Virus record (IMG/VR): IMGVR_UViG_3300028886_000037
Location: 1-64,000 of that record
From: a virus
Taxonomy: Duplodnaviria > Caudoviricetes
Length of the DNA: 64,000 bases
Strand: one strand, 5' to 3'
How positions within the stretch are numbered: position 1 is the first letter of the stretch; each line of letters opens with the position of its first letter. Made by a program: the position numbers and the translations under genes. A model generated the notes under the pieces. That model ran no database searches. It was not told where the DNA came from and worked only from the letters and a program-made list of their open reading frames with translations. Below, in pieces: positions 8,264 through 11,466 of the stretch.

Positions 8264-10775
8264 TGGCTGCCTCTTCGTTATAAGGATAGGTCATCGCTTC
8301 AAGTATGCGGTAAGACGCTAACGTGATCGGCTCGCAGTAGTCTTCAGCAGCTCTTGAGAACTTGAACGAGACGTTCATGTAGTCGGTAGAGCTCTGTGCG
8401 TTCGTGTTGAATGAGGAGATGGCAGCGTTTGATCCATCTTCCTTCTGGCATGTCAAGACGACCTTGTCTCTGCGAAGATCTACCTTGAGAACTCGGAATG
8501 AGATGACCATGCCTGTCGGATTCAATGTTCCATATTCTCTCTTTGCGATAGAGAAATAGATCGGAAGTGATCCGTAAGTCTTTATCATTTCTCTGAAGCG
8601 CGTGAAGTAGTAAGCGCAGTTCTCTGGAATCGGGTACGCATTCTGGTAAACGGAAGAGTGTCCAACTTCAGTGAAGTCTGCGTACATAGGAACTTCGATC
8701 TTGATGGCAGTGTCAGATGTCGTGTTCTTGATCTGAATCATTCTGTCGCAGTTCCAGGAGAATGCGATCTTCTCTATACCCTGAGGTTTCTTTTCGATGA
8801 TGTCGAGAGTGTGGAACATGAAGAGATCTGATAGCTCAGACACCATCTCGTCGTAAATCTTGACGTCGCTGATGACGCGGTTGACTGGAAGAATCGACTT
8901 GACAGCCTTGAATGCGAAGTCTGAGAGTTTCTTCATGTCTGACGTGCTTATCTCGGCAGATGTCAGTACGATCGACAAGTGAGACGATAGACGGAAGTCG
9001 TCGCCCACTCGTGGATTCGGCTTCAGCTTGTTCGTGGTCGAGTCGGCTACCTCGTACTCAGGAATCATCTCGTGAGTTGGGCCTTCCCATAGCGGAATCA
9101 GTCTCGCCTTGATTCCGAGAACACGATAGAGAAGCTCGATCGACTTCGGTGTTCCCTTCCAGCGGTCGATGTATGGAAGGATACTGTAATATCTGCGGTA
9201 GATGGTCTCTGCTAGCTCTTCCTTAGTCTGTCTGAGATCCTTGTCCTCGTACTTAGCGAGAACATCAGCTGCCTCTTTCACATCCTCGTAGTTGAACGCT
9301 AGCTCGGATCCGTGCTCAGATGCGAAGTTAGTGAGCAGTGGAGCTTCACATGCGTCTGGGTTCTTGAATTCAGAGATTCTGTGGATCTTCTCTAGGATGC
9401 CTATGCGGCAGTCTTTGTCGAGCGGCGTGTACATCGTGTTGAGGTATCTCTCGAACAGCTTACAGAGTCCGAAGATTCCCTCGTTCTTCAATACGCCTGG
9501 AACGAACGGATCCACGTATAGTTTGCGCTTGTTGTCATCGCACTCGGAAACGAACGGGCCTAGATCTCTCTCTACGTATGTCTTAGCCTGAATCTGCGCC
9601 GCTAGATCCTTGTCAAGTTCGAACGAGATAGTCTCGCCGTAGATTGTACAGTTGAGCTCATCGATGTTGCCGTCTAAGTACGCATAAGCCTTGACGTAAC
9701 CGCTGCGATCAATGCCGTCTACGAGCTGTGTCGCAGAGACGAGCATCGTTCTGCCGTCAATCTCTAGACGGTCTTCCTCTGTAACTCCAGACAGATAGCC
9801 GACAGAGCCCTCACGTAGGCCGATCTTGATCTTGAATCCGAAGTCTGCCAACTTGTCGTGATTCGGATTGCTGACTGCGATAGTCGTCTTGCCTATCGTG
9901 TTCTCGTCGATAATCATCGAAGCTGGATAAGTGTCCACGAATCCGAGCTCAAGGCGCTTGATCATAGCGAGCAGATCTTCTTCTGTGATATGGTACTTGA
10001 CGAAGACCTTGTCAAGCGGTCCCTCTAAAGTATTTCCAGCTATATCAAAGAATTTGAAATTTAGCTTGAAATAGCTTATAATCGGGTCATCAATACCACC
10101 AGTGCATGCGTTCAGTTCAACCTTCTCTGGATCGATTTCGATATTGACCTTGTACAGAGTCTTGTCAACCGGAGATTGTTGAATCTCAACATAGATTCCG
10201 TCAGAGCTTGTCCCTGAAGCTTCCCAATAAGGAGATGTGCCGTCCTTTCTAGTTCTTTTGATCTGAGTGACCCACTCTTGAAGCACTTCTTTCCAAGCAG
10301 AAATTTCATAAACGTCGCTATCGATGCCGCTATCGTCCTTGATTAGCATCTCCAACGACCACATTTCGTGAGTGGAATGTCGTCCTGAATGACCTCCTGG
10401 GGTCTCGAATGAAGTGAAGTGGCCAGTGTAGCTTAGAAGTTTCGGTGCAACATAATCGAGAACGACGTTCTTCTGAGTGCTATAGACTCTATACTCGCCT
10501 GCGCTGCTGTCGAAGTAGATCGTTCCGTCAAGGTCATTCTCATAAGGAGCGCTTGCGTTAGCGAACGAAGGTGCTCCAGAACGACCTTCCTCAGGGAAAG
10601 TGTCTGTCGGTGGAAGATTCTGAGTCGGACCGAGTTCAGACTGATTTCGATACGGCGGAGCAGTTGCACCGTCTCTGTGGTTTTCGCTGTCGAACATCCA
10701 CGTGATGTAGTCAGGATTTATGGCATCAAATAGTCTGAGCTTGCCATCGTACTCTTTTAACACTTCGATCTTCAT
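8256..10775 (-). CDS. Baseplate wedge protein (gp7/tail protein I-like)
   Basis: RWKGTPKSIELLYRVLG motif; late promoter immediately upstream. Confidence 0.6.
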   Translation of the reverse strand: MKIEVLKEYDGKLRLFDAINPDYITWMFDSENHRDGATAPPYRNQSELGPTQNLPPTDTFPEEGRSGAPSFANASAPYENDLDGTIYFDSSAGEYRVYSTQKNVVLDYVAPKLLSYTGHFTSFETPGGHSGRHSTHEMWSLEMLIKDDSGIDSDVYEISAWKEVLQEWVTQIKRTRKDGTSPYWEASGTSSDGIYVEIQQSPVDKTLYKVNIEIDPEKVELNACTGGIDDPIISYFKLNFKFFDIAGNTLEGPLDKVFVKYHITEEDLLAMIKRLELGFVDTYPASMIIDENTIGKTTIAVSNPNHDKLADFGFKIKIGLREGSVGYLSGVTEEDRLEIDGRTMLVSATQLVDGIDRSGYVKAYAYLDGNIDELNCTIYGETISFELDKDLAAQIQAKTYVERDLGPFVSECDDNKRKLYVDPFVPGVLKNEGIFGLCKLFERYLNTMYTPLDKDCRIGILEKIHRISEFKNPDACEAPLLTNFASEHGSELAFNYEDVKEAADVLAKYEDKDLRQTKEELAETIYRRYYSILPYIDRWKGTPKSIELLYRVLGIKARLIPLWEGPTHEMIPEYEVADSTTNKLKPNPRVGDDFRLSSHLSIVLTSAEISTSDMKKLSDFAFKAVKSILPVNRVISDVKIYDEMVSELSDLFMFHTLDIIEKKPQGIEKIAFSWNCDRMIQIKNTTSDTAIKIEVPMYADFTEVGHSSVYQNAYPIPENCAYYFTRFREMIKTYGSLPIYFSIAKREYGTLNPTGMVISFRVLKVDLRRDKVVLTCQKEDGSNAAISSFNTNAQSSTDYMNVSFKFSRAAEDYCEPITLASYRILEAMTYPYNEEAANE

Positions 10776-10782
10776 ATCAAAG

Positions 10783-10814
10783 TATTTATAACATTTCTGA
10801 AACTATTATAAATA
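10783..10814. promoter_or_regulatory. Divergent pair of T4-type late promoters (TATAAATA): minus strand 10783-10790, plus strand 10807-10814
   Basis: Exact T4 gp55 late consensus on both strands; the plus-strand copy points into a non-coding region. Confidence 0.7.
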
Positions 10815-10852
10815 CAACATAGGTTTTCAAAAGTATATCTTAAGTATACAGT

Positions 10853-11035
10853 ACCCATGGAAGGTGGGGAAGGGTTATCCTGAAAAAACCAATAGCCTCG
10901 GAAACTGATAGCAAAAGGCTAGATCTTTTGCTGGATTAAAGGAACCAGTCACAGCTTGTAGCAAGACTATAAGTCACGCTGGAAAATCATCAACTAAAGT
11001 TGAGTGATTTGCTTCATAGCCGACTACACAAAAAA
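10853..11035 (+). ncRNA. Stand-alone (orphan) TnpB omega-RNA: scaffold 10853-11017 plus guide from 11018
   Basis: Collinear similarity and compensatory base changes relative to the tnpB 3' region 60912-61059; ends in CTTCAT; no ORF. Confidence 0.8.
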
Positions 11036-11068
11036 GAGCACTGCCGAAGGACCAGAACGGCAGTGCTC
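11030..11068 (-). terminator. Rho-independent terminator
   Basis: GAGCACTGCCG/CGGCAGTGCTC stem followed by T6 on the minus strand, downstream of 11098..11466. Confidence 0.75.
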
Positions 11069-11097
11069 AAGCCTAGGAAATGACCAAAGAACCTAGG

Positions 11098-11466
11098 CTA
11101 TAAGAGTCTGAGCATATTGTCTGGACGACCCTGCTCTTCGTATATTTTGTAGATACGATCGTATTCTTTCATGTGATTTTTCATCGTGCGATATGCGACC
11201 AAATAGATAATGACCCAGATGACCGTCTCTATTACCATGCCAGATACGAACTTTCCCGAGTAGAGTGCGAACATAATCGTGTAGAGATCTAGGATCACGA
11301 CGTAAAAAGCGAACAGAGAGCCCCATTTGAAGGTCTTTTCCTTCTTGCGCTTGCTCTTACGGAAGAACGTATGATCTCCCAAGAGAATCATGAAGAGATA
11401 CGCTAGGGACATAAACAGCCCTAGATATTGTGTGAACATTAGCGGAATATAGACTTCCTCATTCAT
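11098..11466 (-). CDS. Membrane protein (about 3 TM helices)
   Basis: Three hydrophobic segments and a basic loop; AAGGAG RBS. Confidence 0.7.
   Translation of the reverse strand: MNEEVYIPLMFTQYLGLFMSLAYLFMILLGDHTFFRKSKRKKEKTFKWGSLFAFYVVILDLYTIMFALYSGKFVSGMVIETVIWVIIYLVAYRTMKNHMKEYDRIYKIYEEQGRPDNMLRLL

Follow-up and report, generated by a model that had tools for sequence, protein, structure and literature searches.

A 228-bp stretch of a cattle-rumen jumbo phage genome is a real, well-bounded and probably functional element, and we consider it likely, from its sequence and that of its relatives, that it is a PATE-like, RNA-only homing element using in trans the TnpB that the same phage encodes elsewhere. 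The element has a phage late promoter and an omega-RNA scaffold, and holds no open reading frame of at least 50 aa. The window (the whole stretch of DNA analysed, 64,000 nucleotides) is the first 64 kb of a single-contig virus record of 247,923 bp, 98% complete. The source samples are bovine gut, and the structural genes of the phage are T4-like. No cultured relatives were found, nor any relatives of the flanking protein in IMG/VR or the GenBank phages; uncultured sister phages have flanking proteins 88-96% identical. A host assignment via GTDB matches was rejected, the matches being phage-like contigs within unrelated MAGs. The features of the element (hereafter the orphan) and of the tnpB element in the same window are listed in Table 1.

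Table 1. Positions in the window of the gene-less element, the tnpB element and their parts
Feature	Positions	Strand	Remark
Whole gene-less element	10790..11017	+	228 bp; after TTTAT, without target-site duplication; sister empty alleles
Left junction motif TTTAT, putative TAM	10785..10789	+	inside minus-strand late box of 839-aa gene
T4-type late promoter box TATAAATA, element-borne	10807..10814	+	homologous to promoter of family tnpB elements
Type-B-specific leader hairpin	10833..10849	+	first loop base 10839
Omega-RNA scaffold	10839..11017	+	stems, right-end hairpin, 3' end
Stem 1	10854-10868	+	loop GGAAG
Stem-1 loop, predicted pseudoknot with 11012-11016	10859..10863	+	ISDra2 omega-RNA geometry
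Stem 2	10872-10891	+	scaffold part
Type-B hairpin	10910-10932	+	scaffold middle
Stem with inner hairpin	10945-10982	+	scaffold part
Right-end hairpin	10984-11010	+	bulged G
Scaffold 3' end CTTCAT	11012-11017	+	sequence
Guide (native right flank)	11018..11037	+	positions 1-17 match empty allele after TTTAT
Two host hairpins	11037..11100	.	present in empty alleles
tnpB element, IS1341-like, without tnpA	59579..61059	+	at TTTAT in late promoter; degenerate left-end hairpin
tnpB, 398 aa	59787..60983	+	RuvC D191/E275/D357; Pfam PF12323/PF01385/PF07282 (IS605 OrfB)
tnpB element's own omega-RNA	60899-61059	+	right end of tnpB element

Boundaries, insertion site and guide of the element

The boundaries of the element are given by sister phages. 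At 11 sister-phage loci (L014-L017, L062-L068) the site is empty with the flanks joined exactly, the empty alleles running from TTTAT straight into the sequence at 11018, and the loci L056, L057, L059 and L061 carry the same 228 bp with one change. These last represent a second carrier strain (SRR8397906), most flanks of which differ by 2-4% and the 839-aa gene by 8.5%; in place of region 10023-10308 of this gene the second carrier strain has unlike sequence. The element is carried by a minority of strains: two have it and many are empty. A look-up of the tnpB site for the second carrier strain matched samples other than its own, and in every match the gene spacing was that of an empty site. 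No clear co-conversion tract was recognized among the flank differences near the orphan, and sequence search detected no tnpB coding remnant there.

The late box TATAAATA of the 839-aa gene lies on the minus strand at 10783-10790 and is rebuilt by the first A of the element. The same holds for the tnpB element, of which the site (59578/61060) is empty in ten sisters (L098-L107): both insertions in the window lie in a reverse-complemented late box, which the first base of the element restores. Among 14 left ends of the family, TTTAT stands 7-11 nt ahead of the left-end signature in all, and within TATTTATA in nine. TTTAT falls within the late box when this is reverse-complemented, and 9 of the 14 left ends lie in such a box, so that late promoters appear to be preferred and harmless insertion sites. 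Left ends in reverse-complemented late boxes were seen at 59572-59579 and 10783-10790 of the window, and in L001-L008, L023 and L032. The box TATAAATA occurs in 55 copies in this genome, nearly all immediately upstream of genes.

Any IS200/IS605 element gains the adjacent flank as guide on insertion. The original prediction gave the orphan a distinct guide, and its guide does differ from that of the tnpB element, but it is just the native, pre-existing flank, since the empty alleles of the sisters join TTTAT to 11018 directly. Beyond the 17 matching nucleotides, the sole difference from the empty allele is one extra A in the following A-run, found in carriers only.

Homology and structure of the omega-RNA scaffold

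The 5' hairpin, the terminal hairpin, the CTTCAT end and the late box named from the letters alone were all located at the places given for them. A local alignment of 10844-11018 with 60900-61060 scored 105, against 30.7 +/- 5.2 and a maximum of 54 for 1000 dinucleotide shuffles, and blastn of the orphan against the tnpB 3' end gave E 4.6e-9 over 79 nt at 75% identity. The orphan and the tnpB-linked copy are reciprocal best non-self matches in the 248-kb genome. The collinear alignment with the tnpB 3' region that had been proposed is thus sound as homology, but it starts at about 10840 and not at 10853, and the central part of the orphan (10872-10940) has been remodelled and does not match the tnpB-linked copy column for column. 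Overall the orphan is 60% identical to the resident omega-RNA, and in the 5' half 51%. A covariance model scan, suggested earlier as a means to find more orphans, detected in this genome the two copies only (both in the training set). The model score of the window scaffold is 113 bits. About 40 related scaffolds were obtained by pattern scans, model search and protein search with the conceptual translation. Among the curated families of Rfam no gathering threshold was reached, the best being SSRC34_2 with 26 bits against 48.

The structural evidence is covariation across relatives, rather than folding of single copies, which was only modestly better than that of shuffles (z -1.67). For 32 sequences, 89.7% of the cells are paired as compared with 32-46% when the partners are slid, and double changes are found in 25 of 36 pairs, counts that are inflated by relatedness. 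The four pairs of the predicted pseudoknot are kept in 32/32 sequences, mostly as invariant pairs with one double change (L003), and conservation ends at 11017 across the same 32 sequences. The two types of scaffold, type A and type B, described below, can be superimposed in stem 1 and in the two stems at 10945-10982; stem 2 and the middle hairpin are found in type B in a different register. Judged from these comparisons the scaffold of the orphan is complete and structurally intact, with a predicted pseudoknot of the ISDra2 type. The earlier claim of selection on structure, as against decay, holds for a widespread gene-less lineage, but not in the form of divergence between the two copies of this phage. 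In the type-B leader, 10822-10828 may pair with 10899-10905 in the middle of the scaffold; this possible pairing is invariant, with no covariation, and trimming at 10839 would remove it.

A separate type-B lineage and its candidate nuclease

Most of the related scaffolds are of type A, overlapping the 3' end of TnpBs 76-89% identical to that of the window, or representing internal deletions. Full and internally deleted tnpB elements were found at the same site (L025/L030/L031 versus L028, and L072 versus L071), and every such deletion leaves the omega-RNA scaffold untouched. Type B is known from seven phage sites: the window, L022 (with a clamp-loader gene on one side and a groES-like gene on the other), L073 twice, L078, L091 (these last four on phage-like contigs of a horse-gut MAG) and L108. 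No tnpB was found at or upstream of any of the seven. Identity between the orphan and the gene-less copies at other sites is 74-81%, and the stems of the orphan contain double changes. The 5' halves of type B form one clade (100/100) and have no common reading frame. The 3' halves are mixed with tnpB-linked RNAs (a single clade was rejected, p-AU 0.012) and resemble the co-occurring type-A RNAs, that of the window copy grouping weakly with the resident tnpB's (92/86), from which we suggest that the halves of omega-RNA are interchangeable modules.

The original prediction was to fall if relatives showed a recent deletion remnant. On this sequence evidence the orphan did not arise recently by deletion within the tnpB of this phage but is a member of the separate, long-lived type-B lineage; the idea that all of the orphan derives from the resident tnpB element was rejected on account of the 60% identity and the grouping of its 5' half with other type-B copies. 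The presence of type-B copies at seven different sites implies past mobility. Nothing was found with the type-B pattern in the GTDB genomes, in a scan with the promoter-plus-scaffold pattern, or with the orphan sequence in the GenBank phages and PLSDB. Two sets of candidate relatives were rejected, L049-L051 as chance 18-mer matches and L075 as a chance pattern match. The phage-like contigs C13, C35, C120, C123 and C172 of G001 (L073-L079, L083-L096), binned in a Paludibacteraceae MAG from horse gut, hold 13 omega-RNA loci, among them four gene-less copies of type B as well as TnpBs belonging to two subfamilies. Type-B copies and full-length TnpBs occur there on the same contigs, which make a good system for the study of guide sharing.

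The TnpB at 59787-60983, which matches ISDra2 TnpB with E 6e-72, is likely to be the trans-acting nuclease for the orphan RNA, their compatibility being suggested by the ends and core that the two RNAs have in common. It may fail to load the orphan RNA, given the 51% identity in the 5' half and the extra hairpins, and a different tnpB subfamily, whose tail the type-B 5' half resembles, might be the true partner. The element would then be the same gene-less one, but served by a type-B-specific TnpB of a co-infecting phage or of the host, and in this phage it would be expressed, unarmed and hitchhiking. Such a partner would explain why the type-B 5' half is distant from all type-A RNAs and why, when it is translated conceptually, the product looks like the tail of a tnpB read in another register; on contigs C123 and C172 of G001, moreover, the TnpBs found together with type-B copies are more distant ones (48-51% identical). 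On the other hand, the upstream sequence of all seven type-B sites is free of tnpB, and a search with the conceptual translation against 1.84 billion representatives, weak because it covers representatives only, gave no TnpB and one 68-aa call over another gene-less copy. In addition, types A and B have the same kind of left end, promoter and putative TAM, as well as the same predicted pseudoknot and right end. We regard a partner other than the resident TnpB as unlikely.

A second TnpB of this genome (168700-170367, minus strand; L053), which was missed by tblastn, was rejected as partner, being 25% identical, with a different right end and no model match. It runs through the right end into the downstream gene to give 555 aa, and has an unusual RuvC-II region. 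In the resident tnpB the stop is a TAG at 60981-60983, inside the omega-RNA region, giving 398 aa as compared with 417-420 aa in most homologues; the catalytic motifs are all upstream of this TAG. The left-end hairpin of the tnpB element is degenerate and lies at about 59595-59625. Directly before the tnpB start codon there is a long hairpin (59710-59785), of which the sequence varies among L001-L008 with the palindrome kept; this hairpin is possibly a regulatory leader.

Promoter, left end and RNA ends

The orphan was originally credited with its own phage late promoter. The box is present and element-borne, but it is the internal promoter of the family, as seen in L108, and was not captured at this site. 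The left-end hairpin usually found upstream of the box is absent in the window copy and kept in L108 and L073a, so that excision and movement by TnpA have probably been lost by the window copy. Neither a Y1 nor a serine transposase was found in a search of this genome for TnpA. The left-end signature is lacking in 5 of the 7 type-B copies, including that of the window, and the scaffold is whole in all five.

A neutral, immobilised remnant, namely a PATE whose left end was lost after a single transposition and which is at present transcribed passively and beginning to decay, would account for the absent left-end hairpin in a genome without TnpA and for the rarity of carriers. It also fits the window allele A10891, which disrupts a G-C pair that every other type-B copy keeps, and the recent same-site deletion derivatives of full tnpB that are common in the family. 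It agrees poorly, however, with the core helices and the pseudoknot, all intact despite 19-26% divergence from other type-B copies, with the scaffold persisting whole in the five left-end-less copies, and with the defined RNA end at the scaffold boundary. We consider a mere remnant improbable, and return to the homing element as the preferred reading.

The contigs X3, X6 and X7, from RNA-library assemblies of two studies, end at 10838/10839, as does L060, whereas a DNA contig crosses this point. The letters joined at the contig ends in two RNA assemblies we take to be Illumina adapter, indicating a fragment end at 10839. One RNA contig covers 10839-11084 only, and RNA cover is absent at 10776-10837, a weak observation. 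The rumen metatranscriptomes concerned are SRR8416064, SRR8416057 and run X3. Position 10839 is about where homology to the tnpB-linked RNA begins (around 10840). If the T4 spacing of box and start applies, as we assume, transcription begins at about 10820 and 10839 lies about 19 nt later. Processing of the 5' end at 10839 is plausible, since the RuvC domain of TnpB trims the 5' end of its own RNA (PMC10278001). A minus-strand read-through ending at 10838/10839 is less likely because of the terminator-like hairpin at 11037-11069 and its T-run. A mature 5' end at 10839 stays a weak hint, as the contigs carry neither strand nor level and may include DNA.

The hairpin at 11037-11069, the first of the two host hairpins, is followed by a minus-strand T-run and is terminator-like for the 122-aa gene; a consensus scan left it uncalled, its loop being 11 nt. 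The 839-aa gene starts 7 nt past its late box (10775-10790), and an RNA contig ends at the ATG; the mRNA of this gene is probably nearly leaderless.

Relation to known systems

Gene-less omega-RNA elements have already been published in bacteria, and the orphan does not represent a new class of system. PATEs are elements that lack a transposase, have palindromes close to their ends and cause no duplications (Dyall-Smith 2011, PMC3119063), and they often encode omega-RNAs needing TnpB in trans, as for ISGst of G. stearothermophilus (Meers et al., 10.1101/2023.03.14.532601). The orphan is similar in being free of ORFs, terminal inverted repeats and target duplication, in its right-end palindrome (10984-11010), in its insertion after a 5-nt motif, in having ends common with a tnpB IS family and in encoding what is predicted to be a full omega-RNA requiring TnpB in trans. 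The window copy, however, has no left-end palindrome and is probably homing-only, and for this reason we classify the type-B lineage as a PATE and the window copy as a left-end-less derivative. Unlike those PATEs, the orphan is carried by a jumbo phage of lytic type and has a late promoter of T4 type, and its lineage has its own 5' RNA architecture and is not a deletion of the resident IS. The IS200/IS605 (IS1341-like) family to which the element belongs is common in large phages of anaerobic habitats.

As in the omega-RNAs of IS200/IS605, the scaffold stops at the right end of the element and the adjacent flank is the guide. The experimental demonstration of action in trans by a standalone omega-RNA was reportedly for IscB. 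Standalone trans-acting omega-RNAs of OMEGA systems have been described in a report that states their biological role to be unknown (PMC10691335, citing a 2021 Science paper). The orphan resembles these in having neither effector nor transposase in cis, and the intact TnpB of the same family 49 kb away would gain a second target with no duplication of the nuclease; it differs in that a natural target can be named, the empty allele of the sister phages. The pseudoknot between the stem-1 loop and the 3' end has been solved for ISDra2 omega-RNA (PMC10097598; PDB 8bf8, 8h1j). With ISDra2 the orphan has in common a homologous TnpB, a pseudoknot predicted at the same positions, a guide in the right flank and, putatively, a TAM identical with the insertion motif, but the TAM and the end here would be TTTAT and TTCAT, there is no tnpA, and the guide RNA gene stands apart from the nuclease gene.

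Homing by TnpB is established in bacteria (PMC8612924), and T-even phages possess free-standing homing endonucleases and collaborative homing (reviewed in PMC13565253). As in the latter, a nuclease encoded elsewhere is proposed to drive inheritance of the orphan locus in mixed infections, but the specificity would reside in the RNA of the passenger element and not in a protein. In the literature covered, which is incomplete, we found no report of such an arrangement in phages, nor of the targeting of late promoters. The case is distinctive in that a whole lineage is gene-less, the left end has been lost more than once, target alleles occur naturally and an RNA end is hinted at. With exact boundaries, natural empty targets, a candidate nuclease in the same genome and this hint of the mature 5' end, which most such cases do not offer, the homing hypothesis is directly testable. 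If true, the 228-bp element would be a minimal parasite of a selfish nuclease, and would illustrate a route by which a TnpB guide becomes independent of its gene, a step that bears on how trans-encoded CRISPR guides originated. Being under no coding constraint, the type-B scaffold may offer a natural alternative scaffold for a compact nuclease with TTTAT as TAM.

Proposed homing mechanism and targets of the guide

The empty alleles show insertion after TTTAT, antisense in a late promoter that was restored by the incoming copy. The first arrival would have depended on TnpA in trans, at a time when the left end was still present as in L108 and L073a. The late box of the element would then drive a precursor from about 10820, which, following the RNA-contig hint, may be trimmed to a 5' end at 10839, and transcription would continue into the flank that serves as guide. 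Late-expressed TnpB is proposed to bind this RNA in trans and, where an empty sister phage takes part in a mixed infection, the complex would cut TTTAT plus flank. Recombination repair with the RecA/UvsX-like protein, for which a RecA-family gene is present in the phage, would transfer a copy of the 228 bp to the genome that was cut; alternatively, the rival would be lost. The carrier allele should be immune, since the insertion parts the TAM from the target. One TnpB could in this way serve two drive sites 49 kb apart. As carriers are a minority, the drive, if any, is not sweeping. Of the two roles first put forward for the orphan RNA, homing is the one supported, by the empty alleles with exact TTTAT plus guide, the intact scaffold and the intact TnpB of the matching family in this genome.

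More tentatively, and with somewhat less than even confidence, jumbo phages may harbour a self-sustaining lineage of RNA-only selfish elements, each composed of a late promoter, an omega-RNA and its own leader hairpin for 5' processing, from which the left end, where the transposase binds, has been shed repeatedly. These elements would persist purely as RNA-programmed gene drives that exploit whichever TnpB of the family is resident alongside them or arrives by co-infection, and the late box would serve them as both TAM and safe harbour, so that a single TnpB would support a multiplexed natural drive between sister phages.

The other role first put forward, a domesticated guide against competitor or host DNA, is not borne out, and in its wider form, an RNA kept against host DNA or unrelated phages, for regulation of late promoters or for titration of TnpB, it is very improbable in spite of the dedicated late promoter, the immobile element and a look-alike of the guide upstream of another late promoter (genome 235870), because the guide equals the pre-existing flank of empty relatives, the element is polymorphic and not fixed, no TTTAT followed by at least 6 guide bases is present in this genome (5 nt only at 235870), no exact TAM-plus-guide target was found in IMG/VR, from which records close to this genome may have been withheld, and no other guide target in the GenBank phages, and TnpB retains D191, E275 and D357, unlike the TldR repressors. 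The look-alike at genome 235870 (minus strand), upstream of a late box, consists of a 5-nt seed, an 8-nt insert and about 12 nt alike to the orphan guide, and 13 nt of it recur at 61069-61081, in the flank of the tnpB element.
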